Assembly: GCA_964473645.1 (NCBI GenBank) | Contig: CAYYPW010000032.1 | Span: 665-24,664, forward strand | Direction: 5' to 3' | Origin: an uncultured Moraxellaceae bacterium | Lineage (GTDB): Bacteria; Pseudomonadota; Gammaproteobacteria; Pseudomonadales; Ketobacteraceae | DNA length: 24,000 nt | Part shown: positions 4,231-23,520 of the stretch, piece by piece | Layout: each line of letters starts with the position of its first letter | Numbering within the stretch: the stretch's first letter is position 1 | Program-made: the position numbers and the translations under genes | Notes under the pieces: model-generated | The model's input: the letters and a program-made list of their open reading frames with translations, nothing else | What the model was told of the DNA's origin: nothing | Database searches by the model: none

Positions 4231-7059
4231 TTGGGTGAATTCTTGAACACAACATTGAGCACAAAACATTCCCACCGCAGAATTACGCAGAATTTTTTTT
4301 CGTTTATATTGCTAACCTTTTCTTTCTGCGCCAGCGCATCCGATTCAACTCTAAATGTTTATGAAGCCAAAAAATATTCTATTGAAAAATATGTCTCCAT
4401 TTTAGAGGACAAAAAAAACGATCTAAAAATTGATGATGTTTCATCTAGCAAATTCAGTTCTAAATTCAAAGAAAACCATAAAAAAACAATAAATTTTGGA
4501 ATAAGCAACTCCATTTATTGGCTAAAATTTAAAATAAAATATGAATCACCAACATCAAAAAAATCCGATATTAGTAAAGAATTTTACATAGAAGTTGCCC
4601 GTAGCCAATTTGAAATAGCCGAGATATATTTTGTCGATCAACATGGCAAAATCTCATCGAAAACATCTGATCGCAGAACGCCATACACCCAAAGGGAAAT
4701 AAAATATATATATAGCGTACTCCCAATTATCTTAAAAAACGGAGAAACAAATCAAATATACCTCAGAATAAAAAACAGAAACTCTTTTTACGCACCCATT
4801 ATTCTTTGGCCGCCTGAGCTATTTGCCGGAAAAATATTGCATGAAACTTTCGTTTACGGGGTTTTCTATGGATGCATGATTATCATTATTTTGTATAACA
4901 TTTTGTTGTATTTATCTATACGTGACCTTAGTTATCTTTATTATGTTGCTTTTCTTTGCTCTTCAACCGCTTTCGAATTCATTGAGCTAGGCCACAGCGC
5001 AATATTTTTCGAGAATAATCAAATACTATTTCAAGTAGAATCCACCCCTGATTGGATCTGGGCCAGCTGGGTATTTGCTCTCTTGTTTACGCGAAATTTT
5101 CTTGACATTAAGAGTCGACATCCATTTATCAATCAAGTTATAAAAGTTCTTATTATATTATCACCTATTTATATTTATTTGGGACACCATGTTAAATACG
5201 AAACTGCGCTTTGGAGTACGGTAGTTTTCTCGCTTATTCTATTATTTTTGATACCCTGTCTTGGCATATATTGTTGGCACACGGGTAATAGAAATGCAGC
5301 TCTCTTCACGCTCGCATGGATTTTTAATATGGCCGGTTTTGCTATATATGCGACTGTTGTATTGGGTATTACTCCCGCAAATTTATTTACTCTTTCCGCT
5401 ATGCCGCTAGGAACCGCTCTTGAAGCAGCGCTACTCTCATTTGTACTCGCCGAAAGAATAAAAAGAATTAGAAAAACAATATTAAACTCAAGAAAGCGCG
5501 CAGTTGAGAGTCTATCAAGGTATAGATCGGTGTTCGATAATGCATCTGCAGGAATGTATAAAATGTCTATTAATGGGAAATTAAAAGACACCAATTTATC
5601 AATGGCAAAAATGATGGGATACCCATCTATTGATCAACTTCGGAAGTCTCGCATCAATGTTGGAAAAATTTTATTTTCTGATAAAACAAAAAATTATTCA
5701 ATGTTATTGACAAACGGCAAGCATCAAGAGGAAGTTTCTTACTTGAGGATGGATGGAGAGCAAATATTGGCGATTAATAGCGCAAGTATAGCATATGACT
5801 TAAAAGGAAAACCTACCCATATAGAAGGCACCTTGATTGATATAACCGAGACAAATAGAAAAGAAATAGCACAAAGAGAAAGGATAATGGAGCGCTGGCG
5901 AATGCAGCTGGCAAAGAATGAGTCAGAAGAAAAGACATATTTTCTCAAAAAAATCAGCTTTGAAATTAGATCTACATTGAATTCTATTATGGGTTATAGC
6001 GAGTCGTTACTATTCATTAAAAACAACCCATCAGAAAAAATTGAACTATCACAGGCGGTTTATAACAATAGCAAATCTCTTTTGCAATTGATTAACGATA
6101 TACTAGATTATTCAAAAATAGAAGCAGGAAAAATGACAATTGAAAGTGTTCCTGTTGATCTAGCTCATCTAACAGAAAGCGTGCGTTTAAGCATTAAAAA
6201 AGCAGCCTCACAAAAAGGTGTGATATTTGATTTTCTGTATAGATTTCCATTGCCCAAGGAAATCTATACAGATTCAGTACGCATTAAACAAATAATACTC
6301 AACATGTGTATCGGCATAATAGAATCAATTGAAGATGGATGCATCGAGTTAAACGTGCTGCACGATAGGAAATCCGAAATTATGCAGTATTCAATTAAGA
6401 TCTATAATACTGGAGCAATTAAAGAAAAAATTGACTTTTTATTTCAAGCATTGGACGAAGATGTAAGCTTCAATTTAATCAGCAATATGGGTATTTATCT
6501 CAGGATTTCAATAGTCAAGAAGCTCATAAAATTAATGCATGGACGCATTAGTGTTGAATTTGTAAAAACTGATGAATACCTGTTAAATATTTACGTTAGC
6601 TGCAAGATGGCGGGCAGGATGGAGTTTGTATCAAACATAAACACCGTAGCTGATTCTACGAAAAAAATTGAAACAAATGACGCCGGCAAGCTAATGGGGC
6701 ATGTCCTTCTTGCTGAGGATAATGTCGTTAATCAGCAACTTATTCAAAGGATAATTCGCAAGACTGGTGCACACGTTACTATCGCCGATGATGGAGAGAA
6801 GGCGCTATCTCTTGGAAAACAGCTCACTTTTGATCTGATACTGATGGACGTAAATATGCCCCATATGGACGGCATATGCGCAACAAAGGAGCTTCGTAAG
6901 GCAGGTTACTCAAAACCGATTTATGCACTTACCGCCGAACACGACCAGGAACAAATCGATGCGTGTTTAGATGCTGGTTGCAACGGACATCTTAGAAAGC
7001 CAATTGAGATGGACAAATTTTTGGGGGTGTTAAATATGGCGTTGAAACGATCTCCATAG
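4231..7059 (+). CDS. 7TMR-DISM / PAS / degenerate HisKA-HATPase / receiver hybrid sensor protein (LadS/RetS-like architecture, probable pseudokinase)
   Basis: - Signal-like N-terminus (FFSFILLTFSFCASA).
- Periplasmic 7TMR-DISMED2-like region (NFGISNSIYWLKFKIKY), followed by about 7 TM helices.
- PAS-like segment (YRSVFDNASAGMYKMSINGK...).
- DHp-like box KTYFLKKISFEIRSTLNSIMGYSE.
- Eroded ATPase boxes.
- Intact REC domain (LLAEDN ... LILMDVNMPHMDG ... ALTA ... LRKPI).
- The start codon is uncertain: TTG at 4231, 4243 or 4255, with no ATG upstream of the signal peptide. Confidence 0.85.
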   Translation: MGEFLNTTLSTKHSHRRITQNFFSFILLTFSFCASASDSTLNVYEAKKYSIEKYVSILEDKKNDLKIDDVSSSKFSSKFKENHKKTINFGISNSIYWLKFKIKYESPTSKKSDISKEFYIEVARSQFEIAEIYFVDQHGKISSKTSDRRTPYTQREIKYIYSVLPIILKNGETNQIYLRIKNRNSFYAPIILWPPELFAGKILHETFVYGVFYGCMIIIILYNILLYLSIRDLSYLYYVAFLCSSTAFEFIELGHSAIFFENNQILFQVESTPDWIWASWVFALLFTRNFLDIKSRHPFINQVIKVLIILSPIYIYLGHHVKYETALWSTVVFSLILLFLIPCLGIYCWHTGNRNAALFTLAWIFNMAGFAIYATVVLGITPANLFTLSAMPLGTALEAALLSFVLAERIKRIRKTILNSRKRAVESLSRYRSVFDNASAGMYKMSINGKLKDTNLSMAKMMGYPSIDQLRKSRINVGKILFSDKTKNYSMLLTNGKHQEEVSYLRMDGEQILAINSASIAYDLKGKPTHIEGTLIDITETNRKEIAQRERIMERWRMQLAKNESEEKTYFLKKISFEIRSTLNSIMGYSESLLFIKNNPSEKIELSQAVYNNSKSLLQLINDILDYSKIEAGKMTIESVPVDLAHLTESVRLSIKKAASQKGVIFDFLYRFPLPKEIYTDSVRIKQIILNMCIGIIESIEDGCIELNVLHDRKSEIMQYSIKIYNTGAIKEKIDFLFQALDEDVSFNLISNMGIYLRISIVKKLIKLMHGRISVEFVKTDEYLLNIYVSCKMAGRMEFVSNINTVADSTKKIETNDAGKLMGHVLLAEDNVVNQQLIQRIIRKTGAHVTIADDGEKALSLGKQLTFDLILMDVNMPHMDGICATKELRKAGYSKPIYALTAEHDQEQIDACLDAGCNGHLRKPIEMDKFLGVLNMALKRSP

Positions 7060-8966: not shown

Positions 8967-9221
8967 TCAGTAGTGATATCGACACTGGGCAATGATGACT
9001 GTGTCTTCAGTAGCCCTAAATACCAAACGATGTTCTCTGTCGATCCGTCGTGACCAATAGCCATACCAGTTATTCCGAAGTGGCTCTGGGTCTCCTATGC
9101 CTTCGAAGGGATGCCGTTTGATGTCCTTGATGAGTTCATTGATTCTCTTGAGAATCTTCTTATAAGTGACTTGCCAGTAAAGATAATCCTCCCATGCTTT
9201 TTCAGCCCATGCGAGGATCAT
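8967..9221 (-). CDS. yoeB: YoeB/Txe-family type II toxin (ribosome-dependent mRNA interferase)
   Basis: The 84-aa product has the family signature over its full length: AWEDYLYWQ ... KRINELIKDIKRHPFEGIGDPEPLRNNWYGYWSRRIDREHRLVF ... IIAQCRYHY. Its ATG overlaps the yefM stop (ATGA at 9218-9221). Confidence 0.92.
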   Translation of the reverse strand: MILAWAEKAWEDYLYWQVTYKKILKRINELIKDIKRHPFEGIGDPEPLRNNWYGYWSRRIDREHRLVFRATEDTVIIAQCRYHY

Positions 9222-17323: not shown

Positions 17324-18373
17324 ATGCTACGTTCTGACTCTCTCAAAATCACCCAAGAGATCCTGGGCCTAATCGCCCGGATCGACGAATTCAAAGGCGC
17401 ATGGCGGGCTTTGGGTACGCTTGCGCCCGACCGCCTGTCGGCACTACGGCGGGTTGCGACCATCGAAAGTATTGGCTCGTCCACCCGCATTGAGGGAAGC
17501 AAGTTGAGTAACCGCGAGGTTGAACACTTGCTTTCCAACCTGACCATCCAGTCCTTCGCAACCCGCGACGAGCAAGAAGTCGCAGGTTACGCCGAACTGA
17601 TGGACTTAGTGTTTAGTTCGTGGCACGACATTCCGTTCAACGAAAATCACATCAAACAACTGCACCAAATCTTGTTGCGTCACAGTGAAAAGGACTCGCG
17701 CCACAGGGGGCAATACAAGACCCACTCGAACAGTGTCGCGGCATTCGACGAGAACGGGGTCCAGATCGGTATCGTCTTCGAAACTGCTACACCGTTTGAT
17801 ACTCCACTGTTAATGGCCGATTTGGTCGTTTGGGTGAATGACGAGCGGGAGAAGAGGCAGCTGCACCCACTGCTGATCATTGCCCTCTTTGTAGTGGTAT
17901 TCCTTGAAATCCACCCGTTTCAAGATGGCAATGGACGGCTTAGTCGGGTGCTGACGACCTTGCTGCTGATTCAGGCGGGGTATGTCTATGTACCGTATAG
18001 CTCCCTTGAAAGCGTGGTTGAGCTGAACAAGGAAGGCTATTACCTGGCGTTGCGCCAGACGCAAGGCACCATCCGAACGGATGCGCCAAACTGGCAACCC
18101 TGGCTGGTGTTCTTTCTGCGGTCGCTTGCCGAACAGGTTCGCCGCCTGGAGAAGAAGGTGGAGCGAGAACGGATTGTGCTGGCCGTCTTGCCAGATCTGT
18201 CATTGCAGATCGTAGAATTCACCCGCGAACACGGGCGCATCACTATGGGTGACGCCATCAAACTAACCACGGCCAACCGCAACACGCTGAAACAACACTT
18301 CCGCAACTTGGTCGAACGAGGTCACCTTACACAGCATGGTAGCGGGCGTGGTGTTTGGTACGAACTGAAGTGA
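17324..18373 (+). CDS. Fic-family protein (class II, self-inhibited AMPylase type) with C-terminal winged-helix domain
   Basis: The Fic motif HPFQDGNGRLSR starts at 17912. The N-terminal inhibitory motif S-T-R-I-E-G ([S/T]xxxE[G/N]) is at 17480-17497. The C-terminal wHTH-like segment is ITMGDAIKLTTANRNTLKQHFRNLVERGHLTQHGSGRGVWYEL. I place the start at ATG 17324 (MLRSDSLKITQEILGLIARIDEFKGAW), which is the usual family N-terminus. Confidence 0.9.
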   Translation: MLRSDSLKITQEILGLIARIDEFKGAWRALGTLAPDRLSALRRVATIESIGSSTRIEGSKLSNREVEHLLSNLTIQSFATRDEQEVAGYAELMDLVFSSWHDIPFNENHIKQLHQILLRHSEKDSRHRGQYKTHSNSVAAFDENGVQIGIVFETATPFDTPLLMADLVVWVNDEREKRQLHPLLIIALFVVVFLEIHPFQDGNGRLSRVLTTLLLIQAGYVYVPYSSLESVVELNKEGYYLALRQTQGTIRTDAPNWQPWLVFFLRSLAEQVRRLEKKVERERIVLAVLPDLSLQIVEFTREHGRITMGDAIKLTTANRNTLKQHFRNLVERGHLTQHGSGRGVWYELK

Positions 18374-18502
18374 ACTGGCTGGACAATTCTGGGCGGCGGT
18401 TACTTAGTAAGCCCCGCGCACAAGATCTTGCTATTGGAGCGCTTCAAATCTCGCGAAAGCGTTACCACATAAATCCGCTATCTGAGAAAGGGAATCCCAA
18501 AC

Positions 18503-18961
18503 ATGCCATTTTCATTACCGCCGAAAGAAATTTTTGCCTTCCGAACCATCGATTTACGTGATCGATTCCCTGAGCCGATACCAACATTTCTGGCAGCGCT
18601 TGAAAAGCTCCAGAGCGACGCAGCGTATATGCCAGAAACGGGTGAAATCATTGCTTATCTGGTGGACGGCAGATCAATACCTATCCCCCGAGAGTTCTAC
18701 ATCCGGCACGAAAAGCGTTTTAAATCACGGGCAGAGGCAGAAAAATGGGTTCGCGAGCGCATGGCGAGCATAGCAGATAATCCTCGCCATCGAATATTCG
18801 GCATCTTTATTGCCGATCCCGACGCACCCATTGAAGAACAGATCGACGAGGCTATCGGCTACACCGACACATCAGTAGCAGACGTCAGTGAAAATCCGCA
18901 GATCGTTGCAAACGTAAACGCCTGGCTGCGAAGCACGGTACGCGAAATGCTGTACAAATAA
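18503..18961 (+). CDS. Hypothetical protein (152 aa), no recognisable domain
   Basis: ATG at 18503 is preceded by GAGAAAGGGAATCCCAAAC. The composition is ordinary and protein-like with no low-complexity stretches. It is co-directional with the flanking Fic and AAA+ genes. I recognise no motif. Confidence 0.5.
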   Translation: MPFSLPPKEIFAFRTIDLRDRFPEPIPTFLAALEKLQSDAAYMPETGEIIAYLVDGRSIPIPREFYIRHEKRFKSRAEAEKWVRERMASIADNPRHRIFGIFIADPDAPIEEQIDEAIGYTDTSVADVSENPQIVANVNAWLRSTVREMLYK

Positions 18962-19281
18962 GACGTCTCTGCGCCAGCGAAACGAAAATTTATCGCGAGA
19001 CTCGAGAGAACAACCGGCGTACTACTGAAAGAACTTTGCCAAAAACCAGTGATTGTGATCGTCGCCAAGCACGTTACCTTGGCGGTACTCCTGCAGCAAG
19101 ATATTGCGGGATGACATCAAGGGCTAGCTCGGTTAAAGCGTTCTCTCATTGCTTACATTTAAATTAAAGAATGCTTTAATATGGTGGCAAGCAATCAAAG
19201 AGTTCTTTAAATGACTCGTACCACCGACACCTACGAGATCTCTACCACTCTGGGCGAATCGGTATCGGGACCAAACTCACC

Positions 19282-20349
19282 ATGAACTCCACCATTCAAC
19301 TCACCCCCGCACAAACCTTTGAATTTCTTCTCAATGTCGCGATTGTGCGCCCGGTTTTTATTTGGGGCGCACCGGGTATTGGAAAAAGCGCCATGGTCAA
19401 ACGTTTTGCTGATGAAGTCGGGCTGGAATGTGTTTCTCTTCTGGGAAGCCAGCTTGCCCCCGAAGATCTGCTCGGCGTTCCAAAAATCGACGGCGAATGT
19501 TCCCGCTTTTTTCCACCTGCCAATATCGTCAGGCATGAGCCGTTTGTTTTATTTCTCGACGAATTAAACGCGTCCTCGCATGAAATTCAAAAAGCGTTTT
19601 ATTCGCTGATATTGGAGCAGCGCGTGGGTGAATATCGGCTTCCGCCCGGCACGATTGTCATTGGTGCTGGCAACCGGGCGAAAGATGCGGCCATTGTCAA
19701 ACCAATGCCTTCCGCCTTGATCAACCGACTCGTTCACATTCATTTACGCGCTGATCATCGGCAATGGTTGACCTGGGCCATCAACCAAGGTGGCATACAT
19801 CCATGGGTGGTCGAATATTTACAGCTTCGCCCAGATCATTTGTGGAGCGAACCACCCAAGCATGAGGAACCGTTTTCCACGCCGCGCAGCTGGCATATGT
19901 TTTCAGATGCATTGAAATCGTTCGGAGAAAGAATTACCGATGACATGATCGAAGCGCTCGCCTTCGGTTTGCTTTCACCTTCACATGCTGCGCATTTCAA
20001 AGGATTCATCAAACAGATTCGTGAGCAACATACACTGAATGCCATCCTCAAAGGTGACCGCCATTGGCCTGCGGCACCTGCTGATCGTGATGTGCTCTAT
20101 TTTCTGGCGCAATCCTTTCGCACGCATTTACGCAAAGAACTCCCTAACGACGAAGCTTCGGTGCGAACTGAGCACAAAGCTTTGGCAATACGCGCAAAAG
20201 ACATGCTGCGTGACCTGGCCCGCATCAGCGTAGAGATTGCGCAATCGGTATTGAGTGAAGACGAAAATGGTAACAGTTTGCCCAGTTGGTTTTTAATCGA
20301 GATCGCTCGCGATTTGCCACGTCTTGCAGCGCGTGGCAAGGGCGCATAA
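19282..20349 (+). CDS. MoxR-like AAA+ ATPase (AAA_5 type)
   Basis: Walker A GAPGIGKS (19366-19389). Walker B FVLFLDELN (D93 at 19558). Sensor-1-like VIGAGN and PSALINRL. A roughly 170-aa C-terminal helical extension follows. The stop codon overlaps the next gene's ATG. Confidence 0.85.
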   Translation: MNSTIQLTPAQTFEFLLNVAIVRPVFIWGAPGIGKSAMVKRFADEVGLECVSLLGSQLAPEDLLGVPKIDGECSRFFPPANIVRHEPFVLFLDELNASSHEIQKAFYSLILEQRVGEYRLPPGTIVIGAGNRAKDAAIVKPMPSALINRLVHIHLRADHRQWLTWAINQGGIHPWVVEYLQLRPDHLWSEPPKHEEPFSTPRSWHMFSDALKSFGERITDDMIEALAFGLLSPSHAAHFKGFIKQIREQHTLNAILKGDRHWPAAPADRDVLYFLAQSFRTHLRKELPNDEASVRTEHKALAIRAKDMLRDLARISVEIAQSVLSEDENGNSLPSWFLIEIARDLPRLAARGKGA

Positions 20350-22151
20350 TGAAACGCAATTCAACCCGTGATGCCGCCGCCGAGGCAAGAAACACTGCTA
20401 TTTTGCAATTGCGATACCACCCGGTATTGGCATTAATCTGCGAACAGATCAGCATTCGTGCCGACACAGACCACCGCTACTTAGGCGAACGTAGCTGGAT
20501 CGTCGTGCAACCCAACGGCAATATCTGGCTACACCCCAAACGATTGCTAACACCAGAAGAATGGCTGCGACTGCTGGCGTTGGCAACGGTGTGTCTCGGC
20601 TTTGGGCTCGTCGTAAAGCGCCAACCCTTAGCCACCTGGGAACTAAGCTCATTGCTGATCGCCAACAGATTTTGTGACGAGCTCAAAATCGGGAGCCTAC
20701 CAGAAGCGTTAGAAAGCGAATTCCCCGTACTCCCTGCAGGCGGTGCGGAAGCACTCTTTCGCTTGCTCTGCACCAGCGAGATCCACTCCCCACTGTTCAG
20801 CTGGCATTATACTCTCACCGGAGGCGGATCTTTCTTTATCAATCTGGAGGAAAAAATCCCCAGCTATTCCAAAAAAGACTGGAAAGCCTTGCTGGCCAAA
20901 GGAATCGCGGCGGGCGTCGGGCGCGCACTCAAAGTGGCGGCAGGCCAAGAAATAAGTGCCACGCCAGAACGCCCCAACTCGCCCGCACAACAAGCCAAAC
21001 GCAGATTGATCGACAATTATCCCTTATTGGGTGCGCTCGCAGCCACCTTCGATCTTGAAGAAGATCATCGTCTCTGCCAGCAATACGGTATTCAAGTTGC
21101 CGCCATTGATGTGGGCGCTCGCAAAATCTGGATGAACCCCGGCGCGCACCTGAATAGCAATGAATGCCTGTTTGTATTCACGCATGAGCTGCTGCATGCC
21201 GGCCTCAACCATGCATCCCGCCGACGCGGTCGTGATCCGCAATTATGGAATGTCGCCTGCGATTTCATCATTAACGCCTGGCTGATCGAGATGGGCATTG
21301 GCTCACCACCTGGCATCGGGCTGTTGCATGACGCCAAATTTCATAATTGGTCCGCAGAAGAAATCTATGACGATTTGGCAAAAGATATTCGTCGTGCACG
21401 CAAGCTCGCAACATTACGCGGTGCCGGGCAACCTGATCTGATCGGCGATGAAGAGAGCCCACATTTTACTGATGCCGAGCGTTATTGTCGTCGGGCGTTG
21501 GCACAAGGCTTGGAACGCTGTCTATTCAGTGGAATGCGAGGCACGCTACCCGCCGGATTAATTGAAGAAATTCGCAGCTTGAATCAACCGCCTATTCCGT
21601 GGGATGTAAAACTGGCCGAATGGTTTGACGAACGATTCCCACCACCTGAAACACGCCGTAGTTATGCACGCCCATCCCGGCGCCAAGCGTCTACGCCTGA
21701 TATCCCCCGGCCTTCTGCATTGAAACCACCCGAGGAGGAACGGAAAAGTCGTGTATTTGGCGTCGTACTGGATACCTCAGGCTCCATGGATACGCAATTA
21801 TTGGGGAAAGCCTTAGGCGCCATTGCGAGCTATGCGATGGCACGCGATGTTTTTGCGGTGCGATTTATTAGCTGCGATGCAAGCGCTTACGATCATGGTT
21901 GGGTTGAGCCCGAGAATTTGTTGGACAGATTTTCTATTCGCGGGCGCGGCGGCACCATTCTGCAACCAGGCATTGATCTGATCGAAGCACAAAGAAATCG
22001 CGCAGAATTTCCCAAAGAGGGCCCGGTGTTGATCATTACTGATGGTTTTTGTGAAGACCAATTGCACGTCTCCATGGATCATGCGTTTTTATTGCCCGAG
22101 GGACGACGTTTGCCGTTTTATCCCAAAGGGAAAGTGTTCTCAGTGTCTTAA
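20349..22151 (+). CDS. Zincin-like metallopeptidase / von Willebrand factor A (vWA) protein, DUF2201-like, with an extra degenerate N-terminal peptidase-like domain
   Basis: ATG at 20349 shares its A with the upstream TAA (TAATG). HExxH as THELLHAGLNH (H279 at 21183). vWA MIDAS DTSGS at 21771-21785, with a later ITDG. Residues about 14-90 repeat the fold pattern of residues about 216-290 but lack HExxH. The track start at 20286 overlaps the upstream gene by 64 nt and is rejected. Confidence 0.85.
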   Translation: MKRNSTRDAAAEARNTAILQLRYHPVLALICEQISIRADTDHRYLGERSWIVVQPNGNIWLHPKRLLTPEEWLRLLALATVCLGFGLVVKRQPLATWELSSLLIANRFCDELKIGSLPEALESEFPVLPAGGAEALFRLLCTSEIHSPLFSWHYTLTGGGSFFINLEEKIPSYSKKDWKALLAKGIAAGVGRALKVAAGQEISATPERPNSPAQQAKRRLIDNYPLLGALAATFDLEEDHRLCQQYGIQVAAIDVGARKIWMNPGAHLNSNECLFVFTHELLHAGLNHASRRRGRDPQLWNVACDFIINAWLIEMGIGSPPGIGLLHDAKFHNWSAEEIYDDLAKDIRRARKLATLRGAGQPDLIGDEESPHFTDAERYCRRALAQGLERCLFSGMRGTLPAGLIEEIRSLNQPPIPWDVKLAEWFDERFPPPETRRSYARPSRRQASTPDIPRPSALKPPEEERKSRVFGVVLDTSGSMDTQLLGKALGAIASYAMARDVFAVRFISCDASAYDHGWVEPENLLDRFSIRGRGGTILQPGIDLIEAQRNRAEFPKEGPVLIITDGFCEDQLHVSMDHAFLLPEGRRLPFYPKGKVFSVS

Positions 22152-22176
22152 CGCCCGACCGCGGTCATACAAACAT

Positions 22177-23520
22177 TTATAAGGATTCACTCTTCCACGA
22201 ATGAAACATCCCGTCTGGATCATAAAGGGTGCGTATTGCTTGTAATCGTGTTTTGTTCTCCGCTGACAAAAAGCGGGCACGGCGGCGGCCAAGATTTTCG
22301 TCGGCCAGCTGAATTCCCACGCCAAGATGTTCCATGGATTTAATGTTGTCTGTCGCCCAGCTGGCATAAAGGTCGTCGTCCTGCGGATTTTTCCATTCAC
22401 CATAGAGAGCAAGATAGTGTTTTCCTTCTACCGAAAAGGCCATGTCCTGGCGTTTTTCCGGGGGATGCCAGCTGATCATCAACACATGACTGGGCATAGG
22501 CGGCATGGTCTCGGCAATCGTATGCAGGCCGGGAAGCAATTGCTCCATGGGTGCATTGGTCCACATGTTATCGACGCTCCAGCGCATTTTGGGCGGGAAG
22601 ATTCTGCGTGCCGCCAGCGTGGACATCACGGCCGTCGAAATCGGCATTAACGGAAAGGGTAAGCTGGCCAGCCGTCGCATCGGGCCGCGCGTCAGAAATG
22701 CCGTGTCCTCTTTTGCCTGTTTCCAGCTATGCGTCAGTACCGGAGCAATCACCTCGATCCCCGGAGCAAAAATGCCGTTGGCCTTGCGTGTCAGCAACAA
22801 TTGGAACTCCACCGAACGCGGTACTTCCGGGCCGATTTTCTCAGCCCACAGAAATACGTCATCAAGATGGCGCATGCGAAAAACATGCGACGCTAACGCT
22901 GTAACTTGGGGGCGCGGATGCACTTTCAGGTGATAGCGAACGACGACGCCAAAAAATCCCGGACCTGCGCCACGCGCGGCCCAGTAAAGGTCGGCATGTT
23001 CCTCGGCATTCGCGTGAATCAGTTGCCCGTCAGCGGTAACCACATCGATGCCCAGTACATTTTCACAGGCGAGACCCAGCACGCGGCTGTTCCAGCCAAA
23101 ACCACCCTGCAATAAATAACCGCCAAGACATACATCAATGGCATGTGCAATCGGAAAAAAAAGCGCGTGACGTTTTAGCGTGTTGTCGAGATCCACGCTC
23201 CAGCAACCGGGGCCGGCAAATGCCATTTGTCGCTCCACATCGACCTCGATGTTATTGAGGCGTGACATGTCGATCAGCAAGCCGCCCTCGCGCAAATGAT
23301 TCTGCAGCCAGCTATGGCCACCCGAACAGACACTGATATTCAGCCCTTCGCGGCGTGCCCGTTTGACAGCGGCGATCACGTCAAAGACGTGGTTTGCCTG
23401 CACCAGCACTTTGGGGCGAACCCCCGGGTCTGAACCGTTAAATGAGGTGCCGAGCACGGCGGCGTCGAACCCGTCATGGTGGCGGGTCATGGTCTTGCCA
23501 ACGCTGTGTGGACGTTTCAT
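22177..23520 (-). CDS. FAD-binding oxidoreductase (FAD_binding_4 / VAO-type flavoprotein)
   Basis: The N-terminal FAD-binding pattern is VRPKVLVQANHVFDVIAAVKRARREGLNISVCSGGHSW ... YWAARGAGPGFFGVVVRYHLKV. I place the start at ATG 23520, preceded by GGGGAGAACACC. That start leaves a 28-nt gap to the upstream gene instead of an overlap. Confidence 0.85.
   Translation of the reverse strand: MKRPHSVGKTMTRHHDGFDAAVLGTSFNGSDPGVRPKVLVQANHVFDVIAAVKRARREGLNISVCSGGHSWLQNHLREGGLLIDMSRLNNIEVDVERQMAFAGPGCWSVDLDNTLKRHALFFPIAHAIDVCLGGYLLQGGFGWNSRVLGLACENVLGIDVVTADGQLIHANAEEHADLYWAARGAGPGFFGVVVRYHLKVHPRPQVTALASHVFRMRHLDDVFLWAEKIGPEVPRSVEFQLLLTRKANGIFAPGIEVIAPVLTHSWKQAKEDTAFLTRGPMRRLASLPFPLMPISTAVMSTLAARRIFPPKMRWSVDNMWTNAPMEQLLPGLHTIAETMPPMPSHVLMISWHPPEKRQDMAFSVEGKHYLALYGEWKNPQDDDLYASWATDNIKSMEHLGVGIQLADENLGRRRARFLSAENKTRLQAIRTLYDPDGMFHSWKSESL

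Follow-up and report, generated by a model that had tools for sequence, protein, structure and literature searches.

We analyzed a 24,000-nucleotide stretch of DNA from an uncultured Moraxellaceae bacterium (contig CAYYPW010000032.1, positions 665 to 24,664; referred to below as the window) and focused on two adjacent genes at 19282-22151. They encode a MoxR-like AAA+ ATPase and a partner protein that joins zincin-like metallopeptidase domains to a von Willebrand factor A (vWA) domain with a metal ion-dependent adhesion site (MIDAS). Our data show that the conserved unit is this two-gene pair alone, a self-contained cassette. Because only RNA-repair and translation-stress genes recur as neighbors of the pair in other genomes, we propose, as a plausible reading that still falls short of probable, that the ATPase drives a vWA-targeted protease serving an RNA-damage or translation-stress response rather than an abortive-infection effector.

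A two-gene cassette conserved across phyla

The pair has the following features, with residues counted within the respective protein:

19282-20349, + strand: gene 1, MoxR-like AAA+ ATPase; intact open reading frame (ORF) with an ATG start, 355 amino acids (aa)
Gene 1 residues ~1-160, + strand: AAA+ core, followed by the lid and a helical C-terminal extension up to residue 355
19366-19389, + strand: Walker A GAPGIGKS, residues 29-36 (translation)
19558-19563, + strand: Walker B D93-E94 within LFLDELN (translation)
20347-20351, + strand: TAATG stop/start overlap; TAA at 20347-20349 and ATG at 20349-20351, with one base in common
20349-22151, + strand: gene 2, zincin-vWA partner; intact ORF, 600 aa counted from the ATG
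20364-20780, + strand: degenerate N-terminal zincin duplicate, residues ~6-144 (hhalign, BLASTP)
20973-21389, + strand: predicted active zincin-like metallopeptidase domain, residues ~209-347 (Pfam DUF2201_N)
21183-21197, + strand: HELLH, with H279, E280, and H283
21210-21212, + strand: H288, probable third zinc ligand
21396-21728, + strand: conserved low-confidence segment, residues ~350-460, with motifs RKLATLRG, DAE.YCRRAL, QPPIPWD, and PSRRQ
21744-22148, + strand: vWA domain with a complete MIDAS (invariant residues, Foldseek, Pfam)
21771-21785, + strand: DTSGS of the MIDAS, with D475, S477, and S479

Judging from the sequence, the TAATG overlap implies translational coupling of the ATPase and its partner; in the ORF list, the mechanical ORF of gene 2 opens upstream of the ATG, at a TTG at 20286. 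An earlier, sequence-only reading of this locus had described two intact genes coupled in this way and had picked out the motifs GAPGIGKS, Walker B DE, HExxH (21183-21197), and DTSGS (21771). The ORF list and translations bore out the genes, their overlap, and the motifs, the latter being invariant across 40 orthologs of each protein.

Related loci were collected from species-representative genomes and from assemblies with called genes, and the first 88 of them (L001-L088) contain a few duplicates. A tblastn search placed the ATPase gene immediately 5' of the partner gene in 81 of these 88 loci, and contig ends account for three of the seven that have no adjacent ATPase. The called genes of orthologous loci, too, overlap slightly or are separated by only a few bases, with 4-base overlaps in L002, L003, and L008, for example. 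Identity to the window proteins is 57-84% for the ATPase and 40-65% for the partner, with orthologs spanning Pseudomonadota, Bacillota, Actinomycetota (Streptomyces), Cyanobacteriota, Chloroflexota, and Acidobacteriota, among others. Since complete pairs occur on plasmids of Nostoc and Sphaerospermopsis, we conclude that the pair moves horizontally as one unit. A profile search returned 281 clusters at E <= 1e-30 (the 600-aa clade) among 4,147 at E <= 1e-10. A search of 5,426 complete E. coli genomes with an enterobacterial copy as the query returned no match.

Two upstream genes of the window, Fic and orf152, were considered as further members of the module and rejected: orf152 accompanies the pair in no other locus, and a Fic gene does so in one other organism only. 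Only the two genes thus make up the unit, and the earlier suggestion that an AEP-helicase, Fic, orf152, and the pair form a single system could not be maintained. Conservation beside the pair extends to no third gene family, the largest neighbor family being RtcB (see below). No NCBIfam model matches either protein, and our full-text literature search, which did not cover the survey of Burroughs and Aravind (2016), found no characterization of DUF2201/COG3864. The earlier remark that no experimentally assigned function was known for the peptidase-vWA (COG3864/DUF2201-like) class thus stands, as the literature searched yielded nothing relevant and neither PADLOC nor NCBIfam has a model.

RNA-repair genes beside the pair

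Neighbor ORFs were clustered, and neighbor families were counted in the first 88 loci by tblastn with locus-derived representatives. RtcB was the one low-copy family that stood out in the clustering, with no other family comparably recurrent. The tblastn counts were as follows:

RtcB, within 10 kb: 17/88 loci
Band-7 protein: 7/88 loci
RtcR: 4/88 loci
RtcA: 3/88 loci
Ro60: 2/88 loci (L009 and L017)
Cytidylyltransferase-like protein: 2/88 loci
PrfH: 1/88 loci

Pfam confirmed RtcB, RF-1 (PrfH), Ro60, RtcA, RtcR, Band_7, Pnkp, and Hen1 among the neighbors. Collectively, about a quarter of the loci, from at least four phyla and with varied gene orders, carry at least one RNA-repair marker. Outside the window, RNA-repair genes adjoin the pair more often than anti-phage defense genes do; the link belongs to the family, not to the window copy.

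Several loci illustrate this association. The order RtcB-PrfH-ATPase-partner (L019) and the order ATPase-partner-RtcB-PrfH (L094) are both co-directional and contiguous, as are RtcB, a 48-aa ORF, the ATPase, and the partner in Massilia (L003). In L172, a tRNA-like gene, Band-7, RtcB, RtcA, the ATPase, and the partner are co-directional and contiguous, with RtcR divergent upstream. In Paenibacillus sinensis (L036), the pair lies between Pnkp-Hen1 and RtcB with Band-7, and Hen1-Pnkp lies 1.2 kb downstream of the pair in L174. Long tRNA arrays abut the pair, together with RtcB, in two unrelated genomes, namely 24 tRNA genes in Rhodoferax (L010, 13287-16045) and 21 in a member of the Actinomycetota (L072, 2198-8113). 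One translational-stress regulon of Anabaena brings together RtcB, a Band-7 (slipin) gene, and a long array of tRNA genes (PMC8421152, PMC10272220). According to a preprint (bioRxiv 10.1101/312249), Burroughs and Aravind (2016) predicted a Band-7-associated tRNA-like gene beside RtcB.

Other features were noted within these loci. The 48-aa ORF of the Massilia locus is a called gene (L003, 6780-6926) that 4-base spacers separate from RtcB on one side and from the ATPase gene on the other, and the related Oxalobacteraceae loci L014-L016 and L020 have a gap of ~155 bases at this place. Between the partner and RtcB of P. sinensis lies an Rfam match to BsrG, a type I toxin RNA (L036, 12029-12274; 68 bits). 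In L174, the ATPase and the partner are separated by an insertion (6329-7023) comprising a small ORF plus a PIN-domain gene, a VapBC-like pair, and an AbiEii gene is found close downstream, with Hen1-Pnkp. Control of the cyanobacterial copies by TrcR, the translational-stress repressor of Anabaena, was also considered and rejected: the published repeat motif (PMC8421152) was absent upstream of the pair on the Nostoc plasmid, and its matches in the locus did not exceed chance. The TrcR regulon includes all0263, labeled "AAA family ATPase" (PMC10272220), which is a potential homolog.

Gene 1 encodes a complete AAA+ ATPase

Gene 1 had been described as a complete AAA+ protein with a long helical C-terminal extension, a description upheld both by Pfam (AAA, 33.6 bits against a cut-off of 21.2; AAA_5, 31.6 bits against 22) and by the AlphaFold model, which has a predicted local distance difference test (pLDDT) score of 82. 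Residues G29, P31, G32, G34, and K35 of Walker A are invariant in the 40 orthologs, and so are L92, D93, E94, L95, and N96 around Walker B, as well as N131, R149, and R202. From their positions, N131 would be a candidate sensor 1, R149 the arginine finger, and R202 sensor 2.

MoxR-specific Pfam profiles score below their cut-offs on this protein (AAA_3, 24.8 bits versus 27; bpMoxR, 19.7 versus 27). We nevertheless call it MoxR-like because its modeled fold, which justifies the label, superposes best on NorQ, CbbQ2, dynein, and RavA. More specifically, the best PDB match identified by Foldseek is NorQ (9qh4, E = 1.4e-9, template modeling (TM) score of 0.59 normalized to the target), and further top matches include CbbQ2 (6l1q), cso-CbbQ, dynein AAA modules, and RavA. 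Hairpins at residues 66-77 and ~113-120 of the model may represent the helix-2 insert and the pre-sensor-1 hairpin, respectively. The gene 1 sequence also matches midasin.

Gene 2 combines two zincin-like domains with a vWA domain

Gene 2 consists of three domains, i.e., a zincin-like duplicate predicted to be inactive, a zincin predicted to be active, and a vWA/MIDAS domain. Its AlphaFold model has a pLDDT of 77.5, with ~90 for the N-terminal domain. The sequence-only reading had overlooked the N-terminal duplicate (~145 residues). Alignment of residues 1-205 with residues 206-345 by hhalign gave 129 co-linear columns (E = 2.5e-5, probability 75%), and a control alignment with the vWA part gave E = 0.2. 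Because the N-terminal copy reads ATVCLGFGLV where the active domain has HELLHAGLNH, it is predicted to be catalytically dead. A homolog, P0243, keeps HCLLH...H in its N-terminus, and BLASTP aligned this N-terminus with the active zincin domain of gene 2 (E = 2e-7).

The second zincin-like domain matches Pfam DUF2201_N (E = 1.8e-29, 103.6 bits versus a cut-off of 23.2). H279, E280, H283, and H288 are invariant across the 40 orthologs; H288 probably acts as the third zinc ligand, and the intact HExxH motif predicts peptidase activity. This domain gives a weak profile match to the minigluzincin MJ1213 (4qhf, E = 1e-3); beyond this, searching the PDB by sequence turned up no solved structure related to the partner.

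Homologs of 957-968 aa were examined as potential fusions of the ATPase and its partner, and this was rejected, as they are partner proteins split by a LAGLIDADG intein at WNVAC|D. The intein (~355 aa, with a LAGLIDADG homing endonuclease and the C-terminal end ...VHN|C) occurs in P0243, P0286, P0292, and P0303, the last of which was assigned to this group by its length and match pattern alone. Its insertion site is the invariant WNVAC|D of the zincin domain, equivalent to window positions 21258-21263 (C304|D305).

Between the active zincin and the vWA domain, residues 350-417 are modeled at a pLDDT below 50, yet many of their columns are invariant. Given this combination of strong conservation and low model confidence, the segment at ~350-460 may contact the ATPase or a substrate and fold upon a partner.

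The invariant residues of the vWA domain across the 40 orthologs are D475, T476, S477, G478, S479, T536, T564, D565, and G566, of which T536 and D565 are candidates to complete the MIDAS site. Foldseek matched this domain with a probability of 1.0 to the VWA/MIDAS domains of CLCA1 (6pyo), MDN1 (8ql1), and Rea1 (6qt8). The DUF2201 profile (vWA, PF09967) scores 22.7 bits, just below its cut-off of 26.4, and many orthologs carry a precomputed PF09967 match; databases label them "DUF2201 family putative metallopeptidase" or "VWA-like domain-containing protein". The structural comparison that the sequence-only reading had recommended placed gene 1 closest to NorQ, CbbQ2, dynein, and RavA and identified the C-terminus of gene 2 as vWA; no close relative of the partner is represented among solved structures.

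Relatives in phages

Relatives of the zincin-vWA core are encoded by 446 phage records (N4-like and jumbo phages) and by more than 200 viral contigs, and structural matches in BFVD reach E = 3.6e-15. The phage proteins are ~380-470 aa long and align to residues ~210-570 only, at 24-31% identity; they lack residues 1-210 and hence the presumed dead zincin domain. Since these phage forms are short and the 600-aa form accounts for only 3 of the 234 viral-contig relatives, we place the window protein in a mainly cellular clade, set apart by the added domain. In the one phage record examined, that of the N4-like phage St11Ph5, the match is gp25, with gp24 immediately upstream. A role in virion assembly has been proposed for the jumbo-phage MoxR/peptidase-vWA pair (Iyer et al. 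2021, PMC7824862).

Surroundings of the pair and the question of defense

Guanine-cytosine (GC) content along the window is 34-41% at 1-9 kb and 47-57% at 13-24 kb. The following features precede the pair:

8967-9613: YoeB/YefM toxin-antitoxin, GC boundary region
10129-10895: IS91 fragments, GC boundary region
14254-14571: truncated YhcG PD-(D/E)xK nuclease, GC boundary region
14779-15801: AEP-TOTE PrimPol ORF, co-directional with the pair (Pfam, E = 3.7e-95; PADLOC CRISPR-associated PrimPol, E = 1.8e-97)
15968-17158: ResIII/Helicase_C ORF, co-directional, in a different frame, 166 bases after the PrimPol ORF
17201-18373: Fic, co-directional (PADLOC SoFic model, E = 9.7e-48)
18503-18961: orf152, co-directional, no family match
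18962-19281, + strand: intergenic region between orf152 and gene 1, 320 bases (ORF list)

The tail of the PrimPol ORF resembles out-of-frame sequence, and 14779-17158 is therefore probably one frameshifted PrimPol-helicase gene. The Fic protein scores 64 bits against the NCBIfam SoFic equivalog, far under its cut-off of 550 bits. No ORF of at least 60 aa is present at 12651-13655. The intergenic region shows no + strand consensus sigma-70 site, any gene 1 promoter being putative, and promoter and terminator scans across 18300-22500 returned nothing exceeding chance. ORFs, Pfam, and PADLOC thus agree with the co-directional block and the nuclease, toxin-antitoxin, and insertion sequence flanks that the sequence-only reading had reported. 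We conclude that the pair appears to sit in an acquired island and that the defense-like and mobile remnants nearby are not part of it.

That reading had taken the setting for a defense island. In PADLOC-DB 2.0, however, neither protein fits a defense-system model: gene 2 has no match, and gene 1 matches only IetA (E = 0.0059, over 33 P-loop residues). A PADLOC scan of 126 neighbor ORFs from 27 diverse loci gave mad3 four times, mad8 and AriA three times each, WYL twice, and single matches otherwise. These scattered and mostly generic matches do not make a defense island a general trait of the pair and form no coherent defense signal, although weak enrichment is possible, since this is one subset with no control set.

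Some related loci have conspicuous surroundings of their own. A full-length partner without the ATPase is embedded in a bacteriophage exclusion (BREX) locus of Thiorhodovibrio (L004/L005, 4820-9824), where it adjoins a DUF4172-Fic gene and an AAA_14/DUF4143 ATPase gene; this is the sole other Fic-bearing locus. In a single case, Serratia sp. DD3 (L175, 1-5525), the pair adjoins a two-partner secretion CdiB/CdiA-like locus that includes a large protein with a PT-VENN toxin-delivery domain.

Proposed mechanism and alternative explanations

By analogy with NorQ-NorD, CbbQ-CbbO, RavA-ViaA, and Rea1, the ATPase would form a hexameric ring holding the vWA protein, whose MIDAS site could grip an acidic residue on a protein target, and ATP hydrolysis would remodel or position this target for cleavage by the zincin domain. 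We postulate that the target would come from the damaged translation apparatus, for example a ribotoxic nuclease or some protein trapped at a damaged tRNA or ribosome. In an RNA-damage response, the pair would constitute the arm that works on proteins; it might also be able to act alone, as in the window. A more specific version, which we regard as doubtful, is that, as a hitherto unrecognized part of bacterial RNA-damage repair, the MoxR motor and the MIDAS-targeted zincin clear a ribotoxic nuclease or a protein caught on cleaved tRNA, cleaved rRNA, or a stalled ribosome, that RtcB or Pnkp-Hen1 could then re-ligate the RNA, and that phages carry a trimmed version neutralizing host tRNA-cleaving defenses.

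Several points weigh against a role in RNA damage. The window itself contains no RNA ligase, Band-7, Ro60, or tRNA gene, and about three quarters of the orthologous loci have no RNA-repair marker. Many of the RtcB-linked loci are from related Burkholderiales, so that shared ancestry inflates the counts, and the enrichment is argued with no genome-wide background computed. In addition, the substrate, the contact between the ATPase and its partner, and the peptidase activity are predictions only. One relative lies inside a BREX locus, and other copies have housekeeping settings, with the pair placed between a NUDIX gene and pta in Metakosakonia and upstream of OsmC and an Hsp70 gene in several Streptomyces; housekeeping surroundings are found in Methylovulum and Chitinimonas as well.

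The pair might instead be a stand-alone anti-invader defense, in which sensing or licensing falls to the ATPase and a zincin-vWA protease effector, released upon infection, kills or arrests the cell. This would suit the SoFic-like Fic, TOTE-type PrimPol-helicase, YoeB/YefM, IS91 fragments, and GC shift of the window, the BREX-embedded relative adjoining a Fic gene, and the AbiEii gene and inserted PIN toxin-antitoxin pair of L174. The module is also sporadic and mobile and can be a small insertion amid housekeeping genes, and vWA-MoxR systems with peptidase effectors have already been proposed as conflict systems (PMC7159879). We nonetheless consider such a defense unlikely, given that PADLOC models match neither protein, that PADLOC matches among the 126 neighbors are scattered and mostly generic, and that a conserved third (sensor) gene is absent. 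Moreover, an identity of 57-84% across phyla is unusually conservative for the ATPase of an arms race, the BREX-embedded copy has lost the ATPase, and the 5,426 complete E. coli genomes hold no copy. The sequence-only reading had also envisaged a protease effector triggered by an invader; the recurrent RNA-repair neighbors elsewhere point rather to damage repair, although RNA repair is still a conflict-related theme.

Patchy distribution, plasmids included, argues against a housekeeping function as a conventional MoxR-vWA maturation or chaperone pair (of the NorQD, CbbQO, or CoxDE type) whose zincin processes a client. NorQ and CbbQ are the closest solved structures, sequence conservation is very high, and the housekeeping settings in Methylovulum, Metakosakonia, and Chitinimonas, together with the OsmC and Hsp70 genes downstream of the pair in several Streptomyces, are what one would expect of such a pair; yet no candidate client gene is conserved beside it and the RNA-repair linkage is left unaccounted for, and we regard this explanation as improbable. 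We give similarly little credence to a mobile-element function taken from or common to phages and plasmids, whether as an anti-defense protease against host nucleases or as a helper of assembly or replication. It draws on the phage and viral-contig relatives and their BFVD matches, on gp25 of St11Ph5 with gp24 directly upstream, on the plasmid copies, and on the virion-assembly role proposed for the jumbo-phage pair (PMC7824862). However, the phage proteins belong to a separate clade of short forms with low identity and no N-terminal dead zincin, merely three viral-contig relatives belong to the 600-aa clade, and no phage structural or replication genes lie near the window copy.

The MoxR-vWA pair as a kind and the DUF2201 family are already known. 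From the literature searched, the variant seen here, which combines a tandem of an apparently dead and a live zincin fused to vWA, the lack of a client operon, and a link to RNA repair, does not appear to have been characterized. To our knowledge, MoxR-vWA pairs are common and few of them have known clients, and what clears the offending nuclease or damaged ribonucleoprotein before ligation is unsettled in the RNA-repair field. Members of the clade number in the thousands and span many phyla, relatives occur in hundreds of phages, and the clade's tie to Rtc, RtcB-PrfH, Pnkp-Hen1, cofactors, and long tRNA arrays offers a concrete and testable idea of the target. Should the RNA-repair link be wrong, the pair remains a clean two-gene module for defense or chaperone tests.

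Comparison with known systems

NorQ-NorD, CbbQ-CbbO, and RavA-ViaA are pairs of a MoxR AAA+ ATPase and a vWA partner that remodel their clients in an ATP-driven manner, and the known MoxR-vWA maturases reside in the operon of their client. The window pair resembles them in its adjacent genes for an AAA+ and a MIDAS-vWA protein and in an ATPase model nearest NorQ and CbbQ2; a hexameric ring, a vWA adaptor, and client remodeling by ATP would also be expected. It differs in that the partner has a zincin with a presumably dead duplicate and in that a client operon is absent; we know of neither an active nor a dead zincin domain in NorD, CbbO, or ViaA. In addition, the window ATPase is longer than NorQ by a helical C-terminal extension of ~100 residues, and unlike MoxR proper it stays below the cut-offs for AAA_3 and bpMoxR.

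MIDAS or vWA proteins act on ribonucleoprotein particles in Rea1/midasin (an AAA+ motor with MIDAS) and in Ro60/Rsr (TROVE with vWA). The vWA model of the window partner matches the MIDAS of MDN1/Rea1, and the ATPase matches midasin in sequence; however, a peptidase is missing from both Rea1 and Ro60, identity amounts to 9-12%, and the domains are arranged in unrelated orders, so this is a resemblance only.

The sequence-only reading had associated the pair with proposed vWA-MoxR conflict systems. Kaur et al. (2020) described ternary systems of this kind, which are defined by a third component, VMAP or iSTAND (PMC7159879, PMC12839542), and whose effector-position peptidases are mostly trypsin- or caspase-like and often inactive (PMC7159879). 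The window pair shares with them a MoxR ATPase and a vWA protein able to carry a peptidase (PMC7159879). VMAP, iSTAND, and the beta-propeller component are all absent from it, and its bpMoxR score is sub-threshold; its zincin lies N-terminal to the vWA domain and has an apparently intact catalytic motif. Because no third component is conserved beside it, we do not regard the pair as a ternary vWA-MoxR system.

With the MoxR/metallopeptidase-vWA pairs of phages, the window pair shares the zincin-vWA core architecture and a gene directly upstream (as in St11Ph5), whereas the phage proteins are shorter, 24-31% identical, and devoid of the N-terminal ~210 residues. Finally, the window partner is a member of Pfam DUF2201_N/DUF2201 (COG3864-type), and in contrast to DUF2201 at large, its 600-aa clade adds an N-terminal zincin domain that is predicted to be dead.

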